DNA from: Candidatus Spongiisociaceae bacterium
GTDB lineage: Bacteria; Actinomycetota; Acidimicrobiia; Spongiisociales; Spongiisociaceae
Direction: 5' to 3'
DNA length: 64,000 nucleotides
NCBI GenBank assembly: GCA_965262915.1
Contig: OZ253564.1
Span: 3,264,001 to 3,328,000 of the forward strand
Both the position numbers and the translations under genes were made by a program. Below the pieces are notes generated by a model. The model searched no databases. It was not told the origin of the DNA and worked only from the letters and a program-made list of their open reading frames with translations. Positions within the stretch are counted from its first letter, which is position 1, and the number at the start of each line of letters is the position of its first letter. Shown one piece after another: positions 1 through 63,199 of this stretch.

Positions 1-705
1 GGCCAGAGCGCGGCCGACGCCATCGCCCGCAAGGCCTGGGACCTTAGGGAGCACTACCGGGTGGAGAAGATGGACGTTGACGAGGCGATCGACGCCTCTC
101 TCGGAGGCGAAGGCTTGTTCGCCCTGTCCGAGGGCGCCGACAGCACAACCGCCGGCGGACTGGGCGACGGCAATCTCCTGCTGCGAGCGCTCCTCCGCCG
201 CGGCGTCGATGTCCCCTGTCTGGTCATGGTCAGCGACCCGGCCGCCGCCGACCTATGCATCCGCGCCGGTGTCGGCACCACGGTCACCACGGAACTCGGC
301 GGCACATCCAACCCCGCCTTCTACAGCCCCGTGGAGGTCACCGGGACGGTCCAAAGCCTGACCGACGGACGCTACACGAACCACTACGGAGGCATCCGGC
401 CGGTTGACATGGGCCCCACGGCGGTGCTCCAGGTGGGATCGATCTCAATCATGATCCCAACCCACCGCCCGCCGATGGTCGATTACGAGGCCTATCTCAG
501 CGTCGGCGCCGATCCTCGGCAGGTGCGCATTGTCCAACCCAAGTCCGCCGGTGCCTATCGCGAGTACTACGAGCCGATCGCCACCTGCATCGACATCGAT
601 GTTCCCGGTCCGGCCGGTAGCGACCTCACGGCGTTCCCCTTCAAACGCATCCCGCGCCCGATGTGGCCGTGGGACCCGGAATTAACCGATCCCTGGACGG
701 AGTGA
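1..705 (+). CDS. MlrC/M81 family metallopeptidase, C-terminal part (5' end outside window)
   Basis: Frame open from base 1. Motifs EGADSTTAGGLGD, DPAAA..C..AGVG, G..DMGPTAVL, IVQPKS and F+RIPRPMWPWD are typical of the MlrC C-terminal domain. Confidence 0.8.
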   Translation, partial: GQSAADAIARKAWDLREHYRVEKMDVDEAIDASLGGEGLFALSEGADSTTAGGLGDGNLLLRALLRRGVDVPCLVMVSDPAAADLCIRAGVGTTVTTELGGTSNPAFYSPVEVTGTVQSLTDGRYTNHYGGIRPVDMGPTAVLQVGSISIMIPTHRPPMVDYEAYLSVGADPRQVRIVQPKSAGAYREYYEPIATCIDIDVPGPAGSDLTAFPFKRIPRPMWPWDPELTDPWTE

Positions 706-773
706 GGCCGGGCTACGGGTATAGGTTCGGTCGGGTTCCGTCAACTTCGGGTAAGTGTCGAAAACCGGACCGG

Positions 774-1547
774 TTACCAGATACTCCAGCCTCCGTCGAC
801 CACGAGATTGTGACCGTTCACGAACGCGGAGCCTTCCGCCGAGAGGAACACGACCGCAGTCACGTAGTCCTCGGGCAAACTGTTGCGGCCCACGGGCGTC
901 TGCTCCGCAAGCCTCGCCCAGAGCGCCAATACTTCCGCGCTCGGCGTAGGGGCCCAAGTGATCATGCCGGGACTGAGCGCGTTGATGGTGACGCCGGTCC
1001 CGCCGAGCTGGCACGCGAGATAGCGGGTGAAGCCGATCAGTCCGTGCTTCGCGGCCGTGTACGCGCCCGCACCGCCTACGGGCAGGGTGTTGCGAGCATC
1101 TTGGCCGATCGAGCCATAGACCGACGCTACGTTGATGACGCGACCCCAGCCGCGGGCGACCATCTTCGGGGTCAGGAGCCGGCACAGCCGCTCGGCCGCG
1201 ATCACGTTGATTTCGTAGGTATTACGCCACTCCTGAGCGGCCTGCTCTCCCCAAGGCTTGGTGTGCGGATCGCCGCCCGCGTTGTTGACGAGGATGTCGA
1301 TGTGTTCGTCCATACCGTCGAGCTGTTCATAGAGCGCGTCGTCGGTGAGGTCGCCGACGATGTACCGATGCTCCGGTCCGAGGCTCGAGAAGGTCTCGGC
1401 GAGCCCGTCCGCGCTGCGGGCCACACTGAGCACGGTGGCGCCGTGGCCGGCTAGTCCATGGACGAGCGTCCGGCCCAGGCCGTAGCCGCCACCGGTGACC
1501 AGAGCCGTCTTCCCGGTGAGGTCAAACATGTTCGATCGGATGTCCAT
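774..1547 (-). CDS. SDR family NAD(P)-dependent oxidoreductase
   Basis: TGGGYGLG, NNAG, YTAAK, LVVDGG. Start uncertain (1547 or 1583). Confidence 0.9.
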   Translation of the reverse strand: MDIRSNMFDLTGKTALVTGGGYGLGRTLVHGLAGHGATVLSVARSADGLAETFSSLGPEHRYIVGDLTDDALYEQLDGMDEHIDILVNNAGGDPHTKPWGEQAAQEWRNTYEINVIAAERLCRLLTPKMVARGWGRVINVASVYGSIGQDARNTLPVGGAGAYTAAKHGLIGFTRYLACQLGGTGVTINALSPGMITWAPTPSAEVLALWARLAEQTPVGRNSLPEDYVTAVVFLSAEGSAFVNGHNLVVDGGWSIW

Positions 1548-1659
1548 CTTGCGAGGCTCCTTTCCCAGCGGTTGGTCAGTCATCGAGGAATGTCATCGCC
1601 TCCATCTCGACGAAGAAGCAGGGATGAAGCGACTCGCGACCGCCGACGAAGGCACCGGC

Positions 1660-1699
1660 CATTCGAGAAGCAACATTCGAGAAGCAACATTCGAGAAGC
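1660..1699. repeat. 14-bp tandem repeat CATTCGAGAAGCAA, ~2.9 copies
   Basis: Read directly; lies near the truncation point of the IS256 remnant. Confidence 0.9.
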
Positions 1700-1724
1700 C
1701 CGCGGGGGTTGCCGCTTCGACGGT

Positions 1725-2283
1725 ACGGGCCGGTTACGGAACTCTGCCACTGTCTGGTCCAGCTCCCGGGCCAATTCGGACACCTGGGACTTGGACAGCG
1801 ACGTGACACCCGCCGCTTCGACCAGGCCCTCCACCCAACGGGTCGAGATTCCCCGCACCCAAGCCTCGGTCACCACCTGCACGAAGGCCCGCTCCGAACG
1901 GGTACGCGCATCCAACACCCACTCCGGAAAGTACGAACCCCGCCGAAGCTTGGGAATCCGCAGCTCGATTGAACCCACCCGAGCTTCCCAACGCCGAGTC
2001 CGATATCCGTTCGGACGGTTCACCCGTTCCGGGCTCTGCTGCCCCCAGGGAGCTCCGCAGATCACATCCGCCTCCGGCGACATCAGCCCCTGCGCCGAAG
2101 CTACGGACCATCTCCCGCAGCAAATCATTACCCTCTGCCTCAAGCCGGTTGCATAACCACACCAACTCGTCCATCCTTGCACCGACGACCGCGTTCCTCC
2201 TCACGGTCCAATGCCAATACCTCCCTGAGGCTGGAGCGGTAGTCACCTAACCCAAAGGACCCTCACCCAACGTACACCACTCG
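1725..2283 (-). pseudogene. IS256-family transposase remnant (N-terminal part only, frameshifted)
   Basis: RVNRPNGYRTRRW..RVGSIELRIPKLRRGSYFP, EAWVRGISTR and LSKSQVSEL..ELD..V.EFRNRP. The N-terminus (MDELVWL..DLLREMV) is in another frame and there is no DDE core. Boundaries approximate. Confidence 0.85.
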
Positions 2284-2537
2284 GATTGTTGCAGGTATCG
2301 CGCGGGTGTCCTACGTCGGGCCGGTTCGCGAATCTCCTTGTCAGCGAGGTCGTGGCAACTGCCTTGCGGCGGGTATCGGTCTCATAATCTACCGTTAGAG
2401 GGTTCCAGTTAGGTGGGTCGGGTCCTGTGGTGGGTGGGGCAGGCATTTTTGGGGAGGGGGTTTGTTTGGTCGTGTTTTCTAGCCGTTCTCTGGTTCGTGG
2501 GGTTACGCCGAGCCGTTGGCCATGCGGTGAAACGCTG

Positions 2538-2614
2538 TGGTGGAGCTGAGGGGATTTGAACCCCTGACCCCCTCGTTGCGAACGAGGTGCTCTGCCGAAC
2601 TGAGCTACAGCCCC
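2538..2614 (-). tRNA. tRNA-Ala(CGC)
   Basis: Reverse complement GGGGCTGTAGCTCAGTTCGGCAGAGCA CCTCG TT CGC AA CGAGG GGGTCAGGGGTTCAAATCCCCTCAGCTCCACCA, with G3-U70 pair and encoded CCA. Confidence 0.97.
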
Positions 2615-2739
2615 GGGTGCAGCGCCATTGTACCCGGAATGACGGGCGGGGCGATCCGGCTATAGCAGGACTTCACCGCTGCCTCGGAATGCCTTGGAGA
2701 ACGGCGGTCGCTCTCGCCCGTCTTCGTCGAGCGCGCTTT

Positions 2740-3390
2740 CTATGGCCGGACGACGGGTGGCGCATGGGTTGCTGCGCACTCCCGAAGGTCGCGGCGGAGT
2801 CGCTCGGCCACCAGCGCCGACGTGAGATCGGCCCTGCTACGTTCCGTCAGGCTGCGGGCTACGTCGGTGGTGCGGCGTAACCCGCCGGTCATGCCATCGG
2901 GATAGTCGAGGGCCGCCAGCAAATCGACGATCTCGTCCATGACCGCCAGCAGCTGCTCCGCCTCCTCGAACTCCTCGGCTCGCAACTGGTCGAGAAGACG
3001 ACGACGGAGTTCCCCGACCGCCTCGCCCAGACCCTTGAGGTAGGGAACCATGGTCATTCCCAGGTCCTGTGCGGTGGGGAGTTCGTGGCGGAACGCCAAA
3101 GCCAGGAACAGGCGGGCTTCGGCGTACTCCTTGGCCGCGTCGTTGAGAATGCCTACGTTGATGTCGGAATGGCCGGCCATGGCGCCGGTGGACTCCTCGA
3201 GGAGTAGGCGAGCCTCCTCGAGCAACGAACCGGCTGCCTCGAGTTCTCCCCGGTGTACCGAACGGATGGCTCTCGCCGAGCATCTGATGATCTGGCGACC
3301 GTTGACGATGACCGTTTCCCTCGCCGAGAACTTCGGGTCGAGTTCGGCGCGTGCGGCAGTCTCGATGGAGGAGAGATCGGGGAGGATCAT
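2740..3390 (-). CDS. Translin/Trax (C3PO-like) family protein
   Basis: All-helical 216 aa with ARE..I...R.IIR.S..AI..VHRG, KEYAEA, YL.GLGEAVGELRR..LD and DYPD..TGGLRRTTDVARS..ERS, matching archaeal/Chloroflexi translin-like proteins. Confidence 0.85.
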   Translation of the reverse strand: MILPDLSSIETAARAELDPKFSARETVIVNGRQIIRCSARAIRSVHRGELEAAGSLLEEARLLLEESTGAMAGHSDINVGILNDAAKEYAEARLFLALAFRHELPTAQDLGMTMVPYLKGLGEAVGELRRRLLDQLRAEEFEEAEQLLAVMDEIVDLLAALDYPDGMTGGLRRTTDVARSLTERSRADLTSALVAERLRRDLRECAATHAPPVVRP

Positions 3391-3397
3391 GGGATCG

Positions 3398-3916
3398 CTA
3401 GCGAGATTGAACGACTCTGACCCTGGAGCTGTAGAACATCATCTCGGTCTCCTGCTCCGAAGCCATGCTCTCGAGCTCGGCCGCTCTCTGCCGATCCTTG
3501 ATCTGGCGGAGCATCGCCATGTACCAGATGAGCAGGGCGTCGAACGCCAGATGGGAACCGATGATCCACAGGCTCCGGAAGATGACGGCTGCGACCAGGG
3601 TCCCGATGGCGGCGGTCGCCAGCGTGACGACTGCCTGGCGCCGACGGGACAGGATCGCGGCGCTAGCCATTCCGCTCGCCACCGCCTCGACCGGGGCGAC
3701 CGGACCGGGAGCGGAACTGTGATAGGTGTCCCGGGGTGCCCGCCCGGCCTGCTCCGGCTGCTCGGTGAGCCTGGCGGCACGGCGGTTGGGACTGAGCCAG
3801 GAAGTGCGCCGATCGGCCCATAGAGGAGGCAGTATACACACCGCCCATAGACAGGCAATCACCAGAAAGAGCGCCCAAGCCATCTCTGCAGCCAACTCCC
3901 CGATCCGCAATCGCAA
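3398..3916 (-). CDS. Putative GlpR/SepX-like divisome membrane protein
   Basis: N-terminal TM (LWAVCILP), low-complexity linker, RRRQ + 2 TM + Y..MLRQ. Position between moeA/moaC and tRNA-Ala(CGC) matches the actinobacterial glpR locus. Start may be ATG ~3883. Confidence 0.55.
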   Translation of the reverse strand: MRLRIGELAAEMAWALFLVIACLWAVCILPPLWADRRTSWLSPNRRAARLTEQPEQAGRAPRDTYHSSAPGPVAPVEAVASGMASAAILSRRRQAVVTLATAAIGTLVAAVIFRSLWIIGSHLAFDALLIWYMAMLRQIKDRQRAAELESMASEQETEMMFYSSRVRVVQSR

Positions 3917-4002
3917 GACAGGTTATACGCCACAGGGTGAGTATCCAAGGATTTCCGGCCGATGCGTGGCGGTGTCGGACCCCCGCGCAAGGACCTCCGG
4001 CC

Positions 4003-4485
4003 TCACTCCGATCCGGCGGACCAGGATCCGGACCGGCCCCCCGACTTGTGCAGAAGGCGTATCCCGTCGATCCGGGCGCCTCGTTCGACTCCCTTGATCA
4101 TGTCGTAGAGGGTCAGGGCCGCGATCGAGGCCGCGGTGAGGGCCTCCATCTCCACCCCGGTCCGGTCCGTGGTCCTCACCGTGGACCGGATCCGGGCTGC
4201 CGACCCGGTTCGGTCCACGGTGACAGTCACGTCCGATATCGACAGCGGATGGCAGAGTGGGATCAGCTCGGCAGTCTTCTTGGCCGCCATGATCCCCGCC
4301 AGCCGGGCGGTGCCGATCGCGTCACCCTTCGACAGGCCACCGTCGAATACCAGGTCGAGCGTCGCCTCGGACGCCACCACCACGGCCTCGGCGGTTGCCC
4401 TCCGGTCGCTGACCGGCTTGTCGCCGACGTCCACCATCCGCGCCCGGCCTCGCTCGTCGATATGGGTAAGACCGATGTCAACCAT
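4003..4485 (-). CDS. moaC: Cyclic pyranopterin monophosphate synthase
   Basis: [40 protein letters not shown]. Start reassigned to the ATG overlapping the moeA stop. Confidence 0.95.
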
Positions 4486-5710
4486 CGAATGCGTCGGATG
4501 CGGGGCGGGTCTCCGGAGCGCGGAACAACTCGATCGTGACCCGATCCCCCACCTCCACATAGCCGGTCCCCACCGGAACCACCGCGAAGGCATCGGCCCG
4601 GGCCAGCGAGGAAAGAACGTTCGACATCTGGGCGCCGCTGCTTCTGATGTAGGTGATCCCATCCCGGATGTCGGTGATCACCCTGGTGAACACCGTCTTT
4701 GCCGGATCGGTACGCCATCTCTCGGTTGCGACCGCCGGAACCAGGGGACGGAACACCGCGGTACATCCCATCATGTGCAGCAGGGCAGGGCGGGCGAACT
4801 GCTCGTAGGCCACCATGACCGAGACCGGATTGCCGGGAAGGCCCAGCAGAGGCGTACCGTCGATATGGCCGAAAGCAAACGGCTTGGCGGGTTGCATGGC
4901 CACCTGCCAGAACTCGACAGTCCCGAGTTCGGCCAGGATCGCTTTGACGAGGTCGTACTCGCCTTTGGAAACACCACCCGACGTGAGCACCATGTCCGCA
5001 GTCGCAGCCCCCTCGGCCAAGGCGCTGCGCAAGGTGTCGGCGTCGTCCCCCACGATGCCCAGATCCACGACCACCGCTCCCAACCTCTCCAGGAGACCGA
5101 TGAGCAACGGACGGTTGGTATCACGGATCTGCCCCGGACCGAGGACTCTCGTGTCAGGAGGCAGCACCTCATCGCCGGTGGACAGTACCGCGACCCGAGG
5201 GCGGCGCCGGACGGCCGGAGCGACACCCAGCGACGCCAGCACCGCCACGTGGCGGGCGGTGAGGCGCTCCCCGACCTCGAATACCGGCTCGCCGGCTACC
5301 AGATCGCCGCCGGCCGGGCGAACCGCGGTTCCCGTCGCGGTCTCCGCCAGGATCAGTACCCCGGCGGGAAGCGGCTCGGTGTCCTCCACCTTCACGACCG
5401 TATCGGCCCCACCGGGCATCGGTGCACCGGTCATGATCTTGATGGCCGTACCGGGCGTGACCGTGGCCCGCGCCACATGTCCGGCGGGCACATCCTCGAG
5501 CACCCGGAGCGTCGCCGGCGCCGTCGACACGTCGGCGCCCAGCACCGCGTACCCATCCATGGCCGAGTTGGTGAACGGGGGGACATCGTGAGGCGCCAGC
5601 ACGGGCCGGGCCAGGGCCAAGCCGAGCACCTGGCCGAGCGGTAGTTCCACCATCGGCAGCGGGGGCACCGAGATCAGTACTTCTCTCTGGGCTTCAGCGA
5701 GCGGGCGCAT
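4478..5710 (-). CDS. moeA: Molybdopterin molybdotransferase / gephyrin-like Glp
   Basis: [42 protein letters not shown]. Confidence 0.95.
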
Positions 5711-6545
5711 AGGTCCATTCCACCAGAAGATCGTCGACTATGGCGCGGAAATCTGGGCCGTAGACGGGATCGAGGGCGCCCAGCACCGCGTTGGCGTGCA
5801 GGTAGCCGAGAGGATTCCCGACATCGAGCAACTCGACATCGGCCACGTACGCCCGGCATCTTCCTGCCTCCCCCAGCGCTGCGATCGCATCAGTCAACTG
5901 TATCTCGCCTCCGTAGCCGGGTTGGGTCCGTTCGAGGTACTCGAACACCTCGGGCATGAACAGGTAGCGTCCATGGATCCCGTAATTGGACGGCGCACGG
6001 GCCGCACCCGGCTTCTCCACCGCTCCCCCGACCTCCACAACATCGCCGGACACCTCGGATCGAGGAACGATCACCCCCTTGACGTCGAGCATCTCGTCCG
6101 GCAACTCTCGCACGTAGACGACCGATACCCCGCCGTCGGCTGCTGCCGCCAGATGGGGGAGGATGTCATCTCGCGGCCGGATCAGATCGTCGGCCAGCAA
6201 CACGTAGAACGGGCGGTCCCCTATCGCCTCGCGTCCCATGAGCACCGCATGCCCCAGTCCCTTGGCCTCGTGCTGGACCACCGACCGAACCCGGATGCCC
6301 TCCAATCCCGGGAGGAACCGGGATGAGACGAAATGTCGCTCGATGATCGTCCCGCCATCGGGATCAGCCACCACGACCACCTCGGTTACTCCCGCCCGGA
6401 CTGCCTCCTCCACGACCCACTGGATGCTCGGACGATCGACCACGGTGAGCAGTGCCTTGGGAATGGCGTTGGTGGCCGGACGCATCCGCGTCCCGCGACC
6501 CGCAGCCGGGACCAGCGCTACGTCGACCTTCATGGTGCTGGACAC
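5694..6545 (-). CDS. galU: UTP--glucose-1-phosphate uridylyltransferase
   Basis: PAAGRGTRM.PAT..IPK, Q.EAKGLGHAV, VEKP, GEIQLTDAI. Confidence 0.9.
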   Translation of the reverse strand: MSSTMKVDVALVPAAGRGTRMRPATNAIPKALLTVVDRPSIQWVVEEAVRAGVTEVVVVADPDGGTIIERHFVSSRFLPGLEGIRVRSVVQHEAKGLGHAVLMGREAIGDRPFYVLLADDLIRPRDDILPHLAAAADGGVSVVYVRELPDEMLDVKGVIVPRSEVSGDVVEVGGAVEKPGAARAPSNYGIHGRYLFMPEVFEYLERTQPGYGGEIQLTDAIAALGEAGRCRAYVADVELLDVGNPLGYLHANAVLGALDPVYGPDFRAIVDDLLVEWTYAPAR

Positions 6546-6857
6546 GTCATCGGGTCAGCCTGTGCGGGACCGCCCGGACCTGCACCGGGCATCCGGTCGC
6601 GTCCCGACTGCCGGCCGGTGGTGGCAAACCGGGGCTGCTACAAGAACTCATAGCGGTCGATTATCGCGTGTTCTTCGAGATCAACACAGATCGAGCGATC
6701 GAACTTGCCCGGTCGTGACTCAACGCACTCTCGCAAGCATCCGAATCCCGTCTCGATCCCGCATCGGGGCGTGACGACCGGCCGGCCTGCCGCTCGACCC
6801 TGAGTCCCCGATCAGCGTGTGGCCGGCCTTCAGCAATCGTCATCGTTCACCATTCTC

Positions 6858-6964
6858 CTAGGAGGGTGGTCTAAAACGGTTGGGAGCAACGGCCCGTCTT
6901 CCTCTGAACAGGCATTATGTCATCGGTCGACGGGCCGTGAAGGGGTTTCACACCACCCTCCTAG
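6858..6964 (+). mobile_element. MITE-like hairpin element, family A, copy 1 (107 bp)
   Basis: TIR CTAGGAGGGTGGT...ACCACCCTCCTAG; inner stem ACGGCCCGTC/GACGGGCCGT; near-identical copies at 12829 and 16434. Confidence 0.85.
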
Positions 6965-7017
6965 ACTTCGACCGGTCCGACAACCGACAACTTACCGACG
7001 CGACCAGGAGCGCCAAC

Positions 7018-7419
7018 GTGAAGGTCTTCAGCTTTGATCCTGGCAGGATCCACCTCTTGAGCCTCCGCGAAGGCGATGACCTCCTGCAGTCATTGACGGA
7101 GTTCGCTCGGTCGAACGGGATCCTGGCCGCGACCATCACTTTCCTGGGCTCCGTCAATCGGGCCGATCTGTCCTGGTATGACCCCGACGCCGGGGACTAC
7201 CGCACCTTCACTGTGGAGGCACAACTGGAGGTTGCGGGCGGAACCGGCAACATCTCCCTGTTCGACGGCCAACCACTGGTACACATACACGCTGTGTTCG
7301 CCGACTCGACCGGGGGAATCTTCAGCGGCCACGTGAACACGGGAACAACGGTCTTTGCCATGGAAGCCGTGGTCCACGAACTGATCGGCCCGCCGCCGGA
7401 GTTCTGGGGCACGCTATGA
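7018..7419 (+). CDS. PPC domain (DUF296) protein
   Basis: L..GDDLL.SL..F, G.I.....LGSV, LEV...TGNIS..DG.P.VHIH.VF, GH. GTG start after AGGAG. Confidence 0.85.
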   Translation: MKVFSFDPGRIHLLSLREGDDLLQSLTEFARSNGILAATITFLGSVNRADLSWYDPDAGDYRTFTVEAQLEVAGGTGNISLFDGQPLVHIHAVFADSTGGIFSGHVNTGTTVFAMEAVVHELIGPPPEFWGTL

Positions 7420-7529
7420 GTCAGCCGTGATCGCCGTGTTCAACCTCGCACTCGGGCCCTGCAGGGGGAAGTCACCCCGACCGATCCGCGACTAATCTGC
7501 CTAGCGAGGTACCCTCCGAGGAGGAATCT

Positions 7530-8369
7530 TTGACCAACCGGGTGTTCAGCGACAGCAGCGGCAGCGGGGAGGCTGCGGAGTCATCACCGGCCATCTCGCT
7601 GCGACGTGTCAGCAAAGAATTCCAGCTGAGGAGGGGTCAACCACTGCTGGCTGTCTCCGACGTGAGCCTTGATGTCGAAGCCGGGGAGTTCGTGGCGATC
7701 ATCGGGCCTTCGGGCTGCGGGAAGTCAACCTTGCTGCGCCTGGTCGCATCGCTGGAGACACCTTCCCGCGGGTCCGTGGTGGTGAACGGACGTAGACCAG
7801 CCGAGTTGGCGGCGGCGCACCGTCTGGGAGTGGCGTTTCAGGACCACGCACTGCTCCCCTGGCTCACCTCATGGGACAACGTCGCGCTGCCGTTCCACCT
7901 AGCCGAGATGAAACCCGACAAGCAGCGAATCTCGCATCTCATGGCGCTGGTCGGGATGGCGGGATTCGAGAAGGCGAGACCCAAGCAGCTGTCCGGCGGG
8001 ATGCGCCAACGTATCGCCATCGCGCGTGCTCTTGCACTGAACCCCGAAGTGCTACTTCTCGACGAGCCGTTCGGAGCGCTCGATGCGGTGACGCGACGCC
8101 AGATGAACCTGGAACTGCAGAGAATCTGGGCTGCCCAGCAGCACACAACCATTCTCGTGACCCACTCGGTGGACGAGGCACTGTTCCTCGCCGACCGCGT
8201 CATCGTGCTGACGGAGCGCCCCGGCAGGGTGAAGCTCGTCAAAGAAGTCGGCTTCCCGAGACCTCGGCAGAAGGAACTCGCCGCCACGCGGGAGTTCCAC
8301 GCCATAGCGGACGAACTCACGCTGGCCTTGGACTCGACCGGAGTCGGAGAGCCGCCGCAGAACCCCTAG
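7530..8369 (+). CDS. NitT/TauT family ABC transporter ATP-binding protein
   Basis: [31 protein letters not shown]. Confidence 0.95.
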   Translation: MTNRVFSDSSGSGEAAESSPAISLRRVSKEFQLRRGQPLLAVSDVSLDVEAGEFVAIIGPSGCGKSTLLRLVASLETPSRGSVVVNGRRPAELAAAHRLGVAFQDHALLPWLTSWDNVALPFHLAEMKPDKQRISHLMALVGMAGFEKARPKQLSGGMRQRIAIARALALNPEVLLLDEPFGALDAVTRRQMNLELQRIWAAQQHTTILVTHSVDEALFLADRVIVLTERPGRVKLVKEVGFPRPRQKELAATREFHAIADELTLALDSTGVGEPPQNP

Positions 8370-8507
8370 GACGGTCCGGGACCGGAGGGATCAGGCCGGT
8401 GGGGCTCCCCGATCCGGTTCGGCGATGGAGCCGTGGATGCCGCGAGCCTCGGCGGCCAAGCATCGCTGTAGCGCATGTCACGGTAACCCGATCCGACGGA
8501 CGCGAGA

Positions 8508-8538
8508 AGTGCTGCCCCCGCTCATCGGGGGCAGCACT
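8508..8538. terminator. Hairpin between convergent genes
   Basis: AGTGCTGCCCCC-gctcatc-GGGGGCAGCACT, a 12-bp perfect stem. Confidence 0.6.
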
Positions 8539-8563
8539 CCCTCGGACCGGTCGGCTTATCCGG

Positions 8564-9727
8564 TCAACACTCCAACAGCGAGGCTCCGCAATTCGCGAAC
8601 GCATCCTCGAGCAGCGTGATGTCGACCATCGTCTCCGGAGCCGGCAGGTTCTCGATCCCCGTCAGACCCAGTACATCCCACATGGTGGTCGCCATAAGAT
8701 CGAAGTCCATGCGGAAGAGGCCCTGCTCGTCGGTCAGGCTGCTCGTCATCAGAGGCACCTGAGCATCGTGGATAGGCCGCTGGAACGAGATGTCCATGCC
8801 GAGTTCGGCCCCACCCTATTTGTTCATCATCAGGTCGATTGCAGTGTCGGGATCGGCGAAGGCCGCTTCCCACCCCTTGATCATCGCCCGCAGGAAGCCG
8901 ACAACAGCTTCACGGTTGGCATCCAGAAACTCGCGATCCACGAACGCCAGATCGTGATACATCTGCATGCCGAGGTCGGCGTAGGACACAGCGACGTTGT
9001 CGACACCCATGAAGTCGAGAATGACCGGGTGGCTGTTCATGTAGTTGACCTGGCCACGTACCAGGCCCTCGGCAACCGGTGACGGGTCAAAACCAACCGG
9101 CACCATGTCGTAACAGCCCGGCTCGAGCCCGTTGAGGACCAGCAGGGCATCGAGTTGGACGATGTCACCGGGAGTGGCTCCGATCTTGCTACCGCATATG
9201 TCACCGGCGGTAAGTATCGGGTCGGAACTCAACGAACTGATCCCGAGGATTCCTTCCTGCAACCTGGTACCGAATATCACGAACTCGTCGCCCTGGGATA
9301 CTGCGTCGGCGATGATGGCCAGCCCCCCGAAACCGATGTCGGCGGCTCCACCGGCGAGGATCTGGACAGGATGCGGTACGTTCGGCCCGCCATACTCGAA
9401 TTCGGGCGCCACGTTCTCTTCGGCGAAGAACCCCAGTTCGTCCGCCATGTACAGCCCCAGGAACCCGGGATCTGCTGTCCAGTTGAGCCGGACGCGGATG
9501 ACCGTAGGTTCCATGGGAGCTTCGGTGGTAGCCGGGGCGGCCGTCGTGGCAGGAGCCGCGGTCGTGGCAGGTGCCGCGGTGGTGGTCGGTGCCGCGGTCG
9601 TGGTAGGTGCCGCGGTGGTGGCAGGAGCCGCCGTCGTGGCAGCCGGCTCGTCGTCGCCACACGCGACCGCCAGCATGGCCAACACGAGGATCATCCCACC
9701 CACTCGGGACCTGTTTGAGTATCGCAC
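8564..9727 (-). pseudogene. NMT1/THI5-like ABC substrate-binding lipoprotein interrupted by an in-frame TAG at 8816-8818
   Basis: Lipobox LAVAC, TTAAP linker, RLNW..DPGF.G.Y.A...GFF.EE, FLRAMIKGW. ORFs 8816-9787 and 8564-8797 share one frame (NK*GGAELGMD). Confidence 0.75.
9523..9644 (-). repeat. 18-bp coding repeat (TTAAPA/T linker)
   Basis: ~6-7 degenerate units encoding a Thr/Ala/Pro linker after the lipobox. Confidence 0.8.
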
Positions 9728-9826
9728 TGAACGTCTCCTAGGCAGACTATCCACCAAGTCTGCCAGCCCGCACTCCCGGATGTCCAAACCACCCAGGACG
9801 AATCCACCGGGGATGCCGGAACAGCC

Positions 9827-11410
9827 TCACAGCATGCGCTGGCGGCCTAGCTCCTCCACCCGGCTTGCGCCGACGTATACGACTACCGACAACACAACGA
9901 TCACGACCGCAGAGCCCCAGGCCCGAGACATGTCGAGACCACCGTTGGCGATGGCGAACAGCCATCCCAGGCCATCCCTTCCGGTTAGGTACTCTCCCAG
10001 GATCGCGGCAACGATCGCCAGGGCTGCGTTGAGCCGGAATGCCGTGAGGAAATCAGGCACCGCCGACGGTAGCGCGAGGTGGCGCAATCTGGCACGCCGG
10101 CGCGCCCCCAGGACAGAGAAGACGTCATCGGCCCCGGGCGGTGTGGAACGGAAGCCGGAACTGACCAGAACGAATGTGGGGAACATCGATACCAGGGCGG
10201 CAACTGCCACCACCGTCGTCCGTGTATATCCGATCACCCGTGCCACGATCGGCACGGTCGCTACGAGAGGGACCGAGTACATGATGATCATGGGAGCGGT
10301 GAGCATGCCCTTCAGCATCGGAGACAGCCAGCTAGCCAGCGCTGCTACCAGCCCGATCAGAGTACCGATGAACAGGCCCAGGGCGGCCGACTGGAGCGTC
10401 TTGAACGTGTAGTCGATATAGGTACCGGGGTTTCCGGCGATATCGCTTACGACCGATTCGGGCGTCGGGGCCACTATGGAACTCACATCCCAGATGGTCA
10501 CGGCCAGTTGCCAGAAACCGAGGACGACCACGAACGGCCACACCGTGAGCGCAAAGTCCACGGTCCGCCGGCGCCAGGAAGTCGGCTGCCCGTTTTCTGC
10601 CCTTACCCTCCTGGTGGGTATGGACGCCCGGACGTCATCTCGCACGGAGAATTCGCGACGCCGGACGAGCTCTTCTATCAAGGCAAGGAGACTGAAGGCA
10701 ACGATGGCGATGAGCGCAGTGAGTCCGGCGGCAGCCCACAGCCGCGCCGTGAAGAATTGCTGGAGCGCGACGACCATCACCAAGCCCAATCCGGGATCTG
10801 TCGTTCCGAACCACTCGCCGAAGACAACCCCGAACATGGCGGCAGGCGCACCTAGCTTGGCGGCATATACGATCGAAGGAGACACCGCCGGCAGTTCGAG
10901 CCTCCGGAACCGGTTTCGCCTGGAAGCTCCCATTACGGTGAACACGTCGTGATGAGATCGGCTCACCAGGTTGAAGCCCGAACTGACCGCAACGAAGCTC
11001 GAGAAGAAGACCGCCAGCCCGGCAAAGACCAAGGGAGTCGCCGACGACGAGACCACCATGACGATGAGGGGACCTAGGGCGATCCAGGGAATGGAGTTGA
11101 CCAGCGTGGCGAGTCGGCCGATTCCTCTCTGCAGTGGCGTGATGAGCAACCCGATCATGGCCAGGGAGACTCCCGCTGCCATGCCAAGCACGAACCCCCG
11201 CGCCGCGTCCCAGATAGTGGCGGCTCCTGCACGACGAAGAATCTCCCAGTCGTCGATGAGGGATCCGAACACATCGCTGAAGGGAGGCCAGCCTCGACCG
11301 AACGCTTCGGCTTGGCCGACCAGTTCCCAACCGACCACCAGGATACCCACACCGACCGTTCCCAGGACGGCCGGCCGCCACCGGGACACTGTCGGCGCCG
11401 GTGTGGTCAC
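9827..11410 (-). CDS. NitT/TauT ABC permease with two fused TM domains
   Basis: Two BPD_transp_1-like halves (MGASR..RF..L.LP and LGARR..RL..LALP). Confidence 0.9.
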   Translation of the reverse strand: MTTPAPTVSRWRPAVLGTVGVGILVVGWELVGQAEAFGRGWPPFSDVFGSLIDDWEILRRAGAATIWDAARGFVLGMAAGVSLAMIGLLITPLQRGIGRLATLVNSIPWIALGPLIVMVVSSSATPLVFAGLAVFFSSFVAVSSGFNLVSRSHHDVFTVMGASRRNRFRRLELPAVSPSIVYAAKLGAPAAMFGVVFGEWFGTTDPGLGLVMVVALQQFFTARLWAAAGLTALIAIVAFSLLALIEELVRRREFSVRDDVRASIPTRRVRAENGQPTSWRRRTVDFALTVWPFVVVLGFWQLAVTIWDVSSIVAPTPESVVSDIAGNPGTYIDYTFKTLQSAALGLFIGTLIGLVAALASWLSPMLKGMLTAPMIIMYSVPLVATVPIVARVIGYTRTTVVAVAALVSMFPTFVLVSSGFRSTPPGADDVFSVLGARRRARLRHLALPSAVPDFLTAFRLNAALAIVAAILGEYLTGRDGLGWLFAIANGGLDMSRAWGSAVVIVVLSVVVYVGASRVEELGRQRML

Positions 11411-11926
11411 TTCCCCGCCGCTATCGCAGACTCCGGGCCCCAGAGAGTTCCGTACCCGACCACCGCCGCGATCGTTGGCCCGCCGAGTCAGCTACCGCGA
11501 ACGAACTCACACCTGCGAGATCGACCTCTCCGCTCATCATGGCTCATCATCCCTTCGGGAGTTGCCGACGGTGAGGGACATCTTACCCGTCGCCACCGAC
11601 CGCAAGGAGGCGACGGGCCTACCCAGTTCCCGTGACAGGCTCCCGTAAGAAGGAGCACCGGATGGACCGAAGCGCCTACTCGGAACCAGGCGGAACAAGA
11701 CCTGGCCGACTGGTAACCCGGGTCGGGGCTTGTGCGACTACGGTGACACAACCGAGGACATCCGGTGTGTAACGGGGTCCGGCACTCCTCCCGTTTGCGG
11801 AGGTCCCGGCGTCCATCGATACGTTCTCCCTGCATCGGGCGAGTCCGATCAGCCTCGGTGAAAGGCCCGTGGAGGGATTCATCTGAGGTCGGCCAATCGC
11901 CGCCTATCGACACAGGATGGAGTGAC

Positions 11927-12595
11927 ATGAGGGTAATCACGGTTCAGGCCTCGCTCCGTGAGGGCGACCTGAAACAGTTCGTGGCGGCTTCGACCGCCAA
12001 CGCACGGGCCGCCGTCGCCACCGAACCGGGTTGTCGGCGTTTCGATGTCTTCCACGATGCGAACAACCCGGCGAGGATCGGATTCAACGAGGTTTACGAC
12101 AACGACGATGCGGTCGGCGCCCATGGCGATTCGGAACATTTCGCGACATGGCTGTCGGCCACCGAGGGCATGCTGGATCGCGAGATGGTGTGGGCGACGT
12201 GCCGCAACCTGTTCCCCGGAGACACGGCGCACCGCGACGTAAACGATGAAACTCCCTCCGAAAGGGGGATCCGGGTCTACCAAGCGCGTGTCTCCGTGCC
12301 GCCGGACGATGTGGACCGTTTCATCTCTTCGGTGACCGAACAGGCGCGTGCTGCGTGGGAGCATGAAAGGGGGTTGATCCGCTTCGAGATCAATCAGAAC
12401 CTCGACACCCCGACTGAGTTCTGGCTGTACAAGGTCCACACCGGCCCCTCGGCGGCCCGACACCACGCCACAGCGCCCTACACCGTTGCGCACCTCGAGA
12501 GATTCGGTGAGTTGTACTCGGCCGGCCCTCCAACACCGATCTCCGGACCCAATATCTGGCCCCCCCACGGCATGTGGCGATCTGGCAACCCGTGA
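11927..12595 (+). CDS. Tandem ABM/LsrG-like (putative quinol monooxygenase) protein
   Basis: Two domains, EPGC.RFDV..D...P.R..F.EVY....A..AH..S.HF and HE.G..RFEI.Q. ATG after GGAG. Confidence 0.8.
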   Translation: MRVITVQASLREGDLKQFVAASTANARAAVATEPGCRRFDVFHDANNPARIGFNEVYDNDDAVGAHGDSEHFATWLSATEGMLDREMVWATCRNLFPGDTAHRDVNDETPSERGIRVYQARVSVPPDDVDRFISSVTEQARAAWEHERGLIRFEINQNLDTPTEFWLYKVHTGPSAARHHATAPYTVAHLERFGELYSAGPPTPISGPNIWPPHGMWRSGNP

Positions 12596-61666: not shown

Positions 61667-63199
61667 ATGCCGCTCACCAAACAGGAGTTGGAGTCGAAGC
61701 TGTGGCAGGCCGCCGACATCCTGCGCGGGCAGATCGACGCGGCGGATTACAAGAACTACATCTTCTCGATGCTGTTCCTGAAACGACTCTCCGACCGTTT
61801 CGACGAGGAGGTGGAGGCGGCCGTGGCCGCGGGGGTCCCCCGCCGGGTTGCCCTGACGGACCTCGACGAGCACGAGTTCTTCATCCCCGAGCCGGCCCGG
61901 TGGCGGGCGATCACAGCGGCCTCGATGAACCTCGGCGAGGTCCTCAACGCCGCCGGCCAGAACATCGAGTCGGCCAACATTCCCAGGCTCGACGGTGTGA
62001 TGGTGGGCACCAACTGGAACGACGAGACCAAACTCGGCAGCCCGGCCAACCGTGAGCGCATCATCCGGAGCCTGGTCGACCACTTCAGCGCCCTGAACCT
62101 CCGGGACGACAACCTCCGGGACGGCGAACGCGGTGGCAGCGACGTATTGGGCGATGCCTACGAGTATCTGATCAACCGCTTCGCCGACGACGCCGGCAAG
62201 AAGGGCGGCGAGTTCTACACCCCCCGGCCGGTGGTGAGGCTGATCGTCGAGCTGCTACAACCGCGCGAAGGGATGCGCATCTGCGATCCGACGGCCGGCT
62301 CGGGGGGAATGCTGATCTATACCGCCCAGTATGTGCACGAGAACGGCGGCAACCGGCGCAACCTGGTGCTCCACGGCCAGGAACGCAATCTGGGCACCCT
62401 CGCCGCCGGAAAGCTCAACCTTCTGCTGCACGGGCTGTCGGCCGCCCGCCTCGAACCCGGCGATGTCATCGCCGAGCCCGGTCTGGTAGACCGGACGGGC
62501 CGCCTGCTCGCCTACGACCGGGTGATCGCCAATCCCCCCTTCAGCCTCAAGAACTGGGGGCACGACCTCGCGCCCTACGATCCCCACCACCGGTTCGACC
62601 GCTACGGCGCCATTCCCCCACGGACCAGGGGCGACTTCGCTTTCCTGCTCCACATGCTCGGCGTGACCAGCGCCGACGGGATGGTCGGGGTCGTCATGCC
62701 TCACGGGATCCTGTTCAGAGGCGGCGCCGAGGGCAGGATCCGCCGCGGCATACTGGAAGCCGACCTGTTCGAGGCGATCATCGGACTGGCACCCAATCTC
62801 TTCTTCGGCGCCAGCATCCCCGTGGCGATCTGCGTACTCAGCAAGGCCAAGCCTCCCGAGCGCCGGGGCAAGGTGCTCTTCGTCGACGCCAACCAGGAGG
62901 GCTGCTTCCGCAAGGAAAAGGCCAAGAACATCCTCCAACCCCAACATATTGCCAGGATCGTGAATGCCTACCGTGACTTCGAGGAAGTCGAACGCTTTAC
63001 CCATGTGGCGAACCTCGAGGAAATCGCGGCCAACGACTACAACCTGAACATCAGCCGGTACGTGGACACGACCGAGCCGGTGGAAGTGCTCAGCGTCGAA
63101 GAAGCATTGGCTCGGATGCGACGAGCAGAACGCGCCCGGGACGAAGCGGTGGCCAAGATGGATGCATTGCTCCTGGAGCTGAGGTATGCCGAAGGTTAG
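61667..63199 (+). CDS. hsdM: Type I RM methyltransferase subunit
   Basis: LW.AAD.LRG..D...YK.YI..MLFLK.LSD, GDAYEYL, GEFYTP, DPTAGSGG, NPPF, PHG.LFRG, YNLNI.RYV. Confidence 0.96.
   Translation: MPLTKQELESKLWQAADILRGQIDAADYKNYIFSMLFLKRLSDRFDEEVEAAVAAGVPRRVALTDLDEHEFFIPEPARWRAITAASMNLGEVLNAAGQNIESANIPRLDGVMVGTNWNDETKLGSPANRERIIRSLVDHFSALNLRDDNLRDGERGGSDVLGDAYEYLINRFADDAGKKGGEFYTPRPVVRLIVELLQPREGMRICDPTAGSGGMLIYTAQYVHENGGNRRNLVLHGQERNLGTLAAGKLNLLLHGLSAARLEPGDVIAEPGLVDRTGRLLAYDRVIANPPFSLKNWGHDLAPYDPHHRFDRYGAIPPRTRGDFAFLLHMLGVTSADGMVGVVMPHGILFRGGAEGRIRRGILEADLFEAIIGLAPNLFFGASIPVAICVLSKAKPPERRGKVLFVDANQEGCFRKEKAKNILQPQHIARIVNAYRDFEEVERFTHVANLEEIAANDYNLNISRYVDTTEPVEVLSVEEALARMRRAERARDEAVAKMDALLLELRYAEG

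Follow-up and report, generated by a model that had tools for sequence, protein, structure and literature searches.

The locus examined here raises a key question: does a bacterial relative of the C3PO ribonucleases act on the tRNA whose gene lies beside its own, or are the two genes neighbors for another reason? The window, i.e., the whole analysed stretch of 64,000 nucleotides, contains an ORF of 216 aa at 2740..3390 (minus strand, as are all genes of the locus) that carries the motifs KEYAEA (residues 87-92) and GLGEAVGELRR (residues 120-130). The ORF follows the stop of a sepX-like gene at 3398 after a gap of 7 nt (3391-3397), and a co-oriented tRNA-Ala(CGC) with an encoded CCA end, identified by ARAGORN at 2538..2614, lies 125 nt downstream. 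The ORF, its motifs and both spacings are therefore as described in a sequence-only reading of this DNA, in which an archaeal-type Translin/TRAX gene was proposed, with the adjacent tRNA transcript as a candidate substrate. The upstream gene (3398..3883, 161 aa from the ATG, with the frame open to 3916), called glpR-like in that reading, deserves the name only in part: its position after glp/moeA and its hydrophobic segments near residues 1-25 and 82-125 fit SepX/GlpR, but the profile likeness is weak (NCBIfam SepX_GlpR, E=1.4e-5, 25 bits against a cut-off of 160). Further upstream are a moaC ORF (4003..4662; Pfam match at residues 76-209, true start probably near 4485), a moeA/glp-like gene (4478..5710; Glp_gephyrin, 340 bits, below the cut-off of 475) and, as the first gene of the block, a galU-like nucleotidyltransferase recognized by a profile match (5694..6545). 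The TRAX-like gene, which is single-copy in the genome, closes this conserved galU-moeA(glp)-moaC-sepX block, and in this sense the suggested location within a core operon was correct. The only Rfam match in window positions 1-12000 was the tRNA itself, as a weak match to the tmRNA model.

To which family does the protein belong? Searches against the PDB with phmmer linked residues 14-198 to AfTrax of Archaeoglobus fulgidus (PDB 3ZC0, 3ZC1; E=1.4e-21, 34% identity) and, more distantly, the protein to NEQ131, the NeC3PO of Nanoarchaeum equitans (PDB 5JR9, 5JRC, 5JRE; E=0.005, 18% identity). The AlphaFold model, built from an alignment of 56 sequences, has a pLDDT of 95.4 and consists of seven predicted helices and no strands. 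Foldseek matched it to AfC3PO with TM scores of 0.80/0.90 and an rmsd of 1.9, to NeC3PO with 0.74/0.85 and to human C3PO with 0.75/0.74; the top 11 rows were AfC3PO and NeC3PO entries, followed by eukaryotic C3PO and translin. Thus, the Translin/TRAX homology suggested from the sequence and, by the predicted model, the fold were supported. The Pfam Translin profile (PF01997), suggested as a further check, gave only 12.4 bits (E=0.16), below its gathering score of 25.9 bits; among the 56 alignment members, 23 match this profile at E<=1, the best at 0.00039. The best NCBIfam model, PRK14562.1-5, reached E=9e-57 with 191.9 bits, below its cut-off of 291, which is not reached in any of 401 Actinomycetota genomes. 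Profile libraries therefore under-call the protein.

The gene is a new member of a catalogued bacterial family (PRK14562), distinguished by its score of 192 bits against the cut-off of 291 and by its actinobacterial, sepX-linked context. Bacterial members have been reported before: according to PMC5100593 (citing Gupta 2012), translin is found as a single gene in Chloroflexi and in five phyla of archaea. Archaeal TRAX genes have also been noted in SepRS operons (PMC5424206). In the largely open-access literature searched, we found no bacterial translin/TRAX member with a measured activity and no paper on actinobacterial TRAX-like members.

The assembly of the protein was approached by co-folding four copies, which yielded a score of 0.69 against 0.00 for the best control (contact agreement between runs of at least 93%, partner pLDDT of at least 86), with only a two-chain interface listed. 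Of 30 solved pairs, 20 attained the pass mark, as did 1 of 23 single chains, and these counts are only roughly valid for this job. The protein is thus predicted to self-associate, but solved relatives may have helped: because solved C3PO complexes exist and may be remembered by the method, the pass speaks for likeness rather than for binding.

Another important question is whether the catalytic site is preserved. In the alignment, E88 (codon at 3127..3129), E91 (3118..3120), E123 (3022..3024) and E127 (3010..3012) occupy the four metal-site positions held in NeC3PO by E82, E85, D117 and E121, and R130 aligns with NeC3PO R124; the available text of PMC5100593 describes the roles of these five NeC3PO residues. 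All five, together with R24 and R32, were invariant in the 109 distinct homologous proteins collected from 127 loci. R172, R173 and D176 were kept in 106, 108 and 109 of the 109, respectively, and correspond to R163, R164 and D167 of NeC3PO by spacing only. As expected, all four positions are acidic, and they are invariant, but the third is Glu, in contrast to the Asp of the solved archaeal enzymes and of human C3PO (D193). Positions 1, 2 and 4 are Glu in AfTrax as well, and by alignment the geometry of the acidic site is also shared with eukaryotic translin-TRAX. Three further NeC3PO residues are unconserved: A39 stands at the aligned position of K34, V177 (by spacing) at that of Y168, and Y38 is not retained at its aligned position. 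In NeC3PO, K34 and Y168 are both required for good cleavage, as far as the excerpts of PMC5100593 report.

The substitution at position 3 is not confined to the 109 proteins. The five site positions were also invariant in the 120 top-scoring matches to an Aquicultor homologue, some of which are named as Dehalococcoidia, Chloroflexi or Armatimonadetes proteins. When 1451 representatives (50% identity) were ranked, position 3 was occupied by Glu in 113 of the best 150 and by Asp in the other 37. A tree was built from 107 of 151 representatives, those of near-full length, together with 31 added proteins; a single clade (SH 0.964, midpoint root) took in 33 of its 35 Asp-type sequences, and we infer that this clade is mostly archaeal. 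The Asp-to-Glu change is clade-wide and worth noting.

Such a change could mean that the two-metal site has been detuned and that the protein is a catalytically weak or silent, translin-like nucleic-acid-binding barrel. This possibility draws on the uniform Glu in all 109 locus homologues and all 120 close matches, where the characterised enzymes have Asp, and on the much weaker activity of the NeC3PO D117N mutant described in the excerpts of PMC5100593. However, all four positions have kept their acidic residue without variation in different bacterial phyla, a sign that metal binding may be under selection, and eukaryotic translin, the inactive subunit, is described in the same source as having no catalytic residues. 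We therefore regard a weak or silent barrel as quite unlikely. The TRAX-like protein is likely catalytically intact, a wording we do not strengthen because position 3 is Glu rather than Asp, and by analogy with its relatives it is probably an active nuclease.

What substrate would such a nuclease have? The excerpts of PMC5100593 describe NeC3PO and AfC3PO as homo-octamers that enclose the substrate in their cavity and cleave it with two cations to products down to 3 nt, and NeC3PO as preferring single-stranded RNA at least 10-fold over single-stranded DNA. On this model, the TRAX-like protein would assemble into a C3PO-type barrel, with self-association predicted here and the octamer extrapolated from NeC3PO and AfC3PO. 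Its E88, E91, E123 and E127 would hold two metal ions and support cleavage of short single-stranded RNA. Whatever the transcript of origin, fragments left by decay and leaders set free would be trimmed to a few nucleotides. In eukaryotes, C3PO is built from two kinds of subunit, inactive translin and active TRAX; here, there is one gene, the only one of the translin family in the genome as in Archaeoglobus, and no RNAi machinery was found. The genome (96% complete) has no Piwi match, and a function as RISC activator, which would need Argonaute/Piwi, is ruled out. A housekeeping role in decay would suit a gene that is single-copy, vertically inherited and surrounded by different neighbors in different lineages. 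On balance, we favor a TRAX-like, C3PO-type housekeeping nuclease for short single-stranded RNA, with an independently transcribed tRNA placed next to it by inherited gene order; the chance that short-RNA clearing is the main cellular job of the protein we put slightly below even.

The physiological substrate could instead be single-stranded DNA, such as repair or recombination intermediates or DNA fragments. NeC3PO does cut single-stranded DNA according to the excerpts of PMC5100593, and one homologue (P0249) is a fusion of translin with an HRDC domain, but the preference for RNA mentioned above points the other way. Moreover, the conserved block has no repair genes beside the TRAX-like gene, and elsewhere they are only sporadic among its neighbors (UvrA at one locus, L118, and a Rad50/SbcC-like gene at another, L143). 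We consider a DNA substrate distinctly improbable.

If RNA is the substrate, a comparison with the oligoribonuclease Orn is of interest. In the genome studied here, Orn had no match and one DHH-domain protein was present. In the class sample, translin was found in 72 of 99 genomes without an Orn match (73%) and in 93 of 202 with one (46%); in the phylum sample, the corresponding values were 147 of 328 (45%) and 10 of 73 (14%), and in both samples related genomes are not independent. Strict replacement of Orn by translin is rejected, because 93 of the 301 class genomes have both genes and 27 have neither. Since the pattern is non-exclusive and follows lineage boundaries, it is a weak hint at a role in RNA decay. 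One may speculate that a bacterial C3PO branch with an all-glutamate metal site acts as a caged RNase for short RNA and partly covers the Orn step in Orn-less lineages such as this sponge-symbiont family; this we regard as unlikely, but if true, it would mean that an unrecognised, widespread part of bacterial RNA decay is filed under the label "haloacid dehalogenase". Most families of the window's order gave no Orn match (0 of 2, 0 of 22, 1 of 42 and 0 of 12 genomes in f1, f2, f4 and f10, respectively), and of the remaining families in the class sample, most have Orn in nearly every genome.

Is the adjacent tRNA, then, the dedicated substrate? The adjacency extends well beyond this genome: among the 30 best order-level translin loci, tRNA-Ala(CGC) lies within 150 nt in 24, further away in 3 and is missing in 2, and the contig ends at one locus. 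For the class, the 30 best loci (1.5 kb flanks) gave 17 within 150 nt, 3 further and 10 without, and among 40 phylum-level loci hand-picked across families from 157 positives (4 kb flanks), they were 12, 8 and 20. None of eight metagenome translin loci found with a Dehalococcoidia protein had a tRNA-Ala. Loci without translin are informative here. The SepX/GlpR model retrieved 30 loci, 20 of them without translin, and 14 of these 20, from six families, have a co-oriented tRNA-Ala(CGC); the 14 include all six loci above the curated SepX cut-off (one family), and the remaining six of the 20 are weak SepX matches (E 2.6e-5 to 1.8e-4). In a genome from the window's own family that is 96% complete (G019), no translin match was found, and sepX runs directly into the tRNA (L088). 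Three loci with other arrangements were also seen: in L050, the tRNA-Ala(CGC) (4918-4992) is inverted relative to translin, in L117 a convergent tRNA-Ala(GGC) follows translin after 30 nt, and in L138 a tRNA-Asp lies 166 nt downstream.

The tRNA also likely has its own promoter, judging from the sequence before it. A predicted -10 box, TACAAT (2627..2632, minus), ends 12 nt before the mature 5' end. Its position is conserved: TANNNT ends 5-30 nt before the tRNA in 69 of 78 distinct upstream regions (shuffled mean 9.3, maximum 19 in 1000 shuffles), with a peak at 10-14 nt, and the four loci of this set that have no translin show it as well; a -10 box lies 8-18 nt before the tRNA in 57 of 67 translin loci. 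A scan with the sigma-70 consensus did not report this box, because the scan requires a -35 match. With the usual spacing between a -10 box and the start site, the tRNA leader would be about 5-6 nt long. No terminator-like site was found between the TRAX-like gene and the tRNA, so that read-through transcripts are possible, and the intergenic sequence before the tRNA folds no better than its shuffles (z -0.56). The genome has an ordinary RNase P RNA, and RNase P would cut such read-through transcripts. RNA contigs from four low-depth RNA or guessed-RNA runs covered pieces of sepX, moaC, moeA and galU and none of translin, a kind of material that can show neither absence nor co-transcription.

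A protein dedicated to processing the precursor of the adjacent tRNA-Ala, or its leader, would account for the frequent adjacency in the closest and class-level loci and for the missing terminator, and Neurospora C3PO offers a precedent, as it degrades 5' pre-tRNA fragments (excerpts of PMC5100593, citing Li 2012); its role there is the clearing of fragments already released. The same tRNA, however, follows sepX where translin is missing, appears to have its own promoter and would have only a short leader, and is absent from the flanks of 10 of 30 class-level and 20 of 40 phylum-level loci and from all eight metagenome loci; an ordinary RNase P RNA is also present in the genome. A special relation to this substrate, as suggested from the sequence, therefore did not hold up, and we consider it very improbable. 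Translin itself stays with the operon: upstream operon genes were found at 29 of 30 order-level loci, and of the 30 class loci, 29 have the upstream operon, 20 have the tRNA and none has the tRNA alone. Three observations, the sepX-tRNA order at loci that have no translin, a separate predicted -10 box before the tRNA and the attachment of translin to the operon, make it most likely that the tRNA neighbor reflects inherited gene order and is incidental. That the protein is TRAX-like and its tRNA neighbor incidental is a conclusion we hold with considerable confidence. The tRNA neighbor is thus no shortcut to the substrate.

The close association with the operon could alternatively indicate a function in the Glp-GlpR(SepX) division module, for instance through recruitment of the protein to the septum. 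The 7-nt gap after sepX and the upstream genes at 29 of 30 loci at both the order and class levels would suit this, and glp and glpR form a conserved divisome pair with conserved synteny, according to the available part of PMC10522489. However, none of the six loci above the SepX cut-off has translin. The block is also functionally mixed, since it contains galU and moaC, and at 17 of the 40 phylum loci, operon and tRNA are both missing and the neighbors are unrelated (HAD, Hsp33, acylphosphatase, aminotransferase and ABC genes). A role in division is therefore highly improbable.

The identity given by NCBI, a haloacid dehalogenase (HAD)-type phosphatase, as in the best NCBIfam matches ("haloacid dehalogenase superfamily protein") and several database records, is extremely unlikely, since HAD enzymes have a Rossmann-like alpha/beta fold with a catalytic Asp motif and the present protein has a strandless model, fold matches to C3PO/translin and no HAD Pfam match, and a true HAD gene adjoins the homologue at some loci. 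The latter are the Aquicultor-like loci L135, L136, L151 and L184, where the translin homologue has a HAD hydrolase gene as its immediate neighbor. Labels differ between databases: JGI names many homologues "translin", and NCBIfam PRK14562 is named "haloacid dehalogenase".

How widespread is the gene, and how is it inherited? It was matched in 36 of 41 near relatives, 165 of 301 genomes of the class and 158 of 401 genomes of the phylum (157 without one weak match, E=2.8e-4, in G379); the counts include unpublished genomes (G028, G039, G198, G232, G440, G487 and others), on which none of the conclusions depends by itself. A C3PO-type protein is therefore present in about 40% of the sampled Actinomycetota genomes, widely misnamed as a haloacid dehalogenase and with its metal site shifted from Asp to Glu. 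Several families nearly or entirely lack it, namely 1 of 35 genomes (f18) and 0 of 16 (f24) in the class sample and 0 of 33 (f69) and 0 of 30 (f71) in the phylum sample, and the gene is dispensable in many lineages. Trees of translin and of MoaC from 84 of the 109 loci are in agreement (Mantel r 0.86; at most 0.08 in permutations), with 21 shared splits out of 40 and 35 supported ones and 3 in conflict, which fits vertical inheritance of translin together with the operon. No match was found in 72,556 plasmids, 50,697 phages, IMG/VR or PADLOC, and a mobile or defence role was therefore set aside. The locus thus represents an ordinary inherited gene order, and its interest lies in the family: the activity of any bacterial member bears on the existence of a caged short-RNA nuclease in bacteria and on the role of C3PO before RNAi.

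Two records titled Gammaproteobacteria and Acidobacteria (L052 and L056) carry a galU-moeA-moaC-translin-tRNA block of the Acidimicrobiia type (60% identity), for which wrong labels or mixed bins are a more likely explanation than transfer. Domain fusions were also observed. In seven of 12 long homologues (P0390-P0396, 401-417 aa), a double Clp_N domain of the ClpC N-terminal type (PF02861) is joined by a linker to a translin domain whose E-E-E-E site is intact, an arrangement for which no paper was found in the literature searched. They fall into seven separate 90% clusters, so that a single misassembly is unlikely, and the fusion may connect the nuclease with the recognition of substrates or adaptors of the Clp type. 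P0397 and P0398 are fusions with thiamine-phosphate synthase; they mirror L185 and L188, where thiE and translin are adjacent, and may be artefacts of read-through or of gene calling.

Two further features of the window were noted. An ARAGORN call of tRNA-Gly (anticodon ACC) at 62437-62521 resembles coding DNA and is probably false. Beyond the tRNA-Ala(CGC), where the conserved synteny appears to end, an IS256/Mutator transposase remnant (1580-2280; PF00872, E=4.6e-32) lies ~260 nt past the tRNA 3' end, with three tandem 14-nt repeats at 1660-1701; an integration site is possible, and four partial copies of 77-82% occur elsewhere in the genome.
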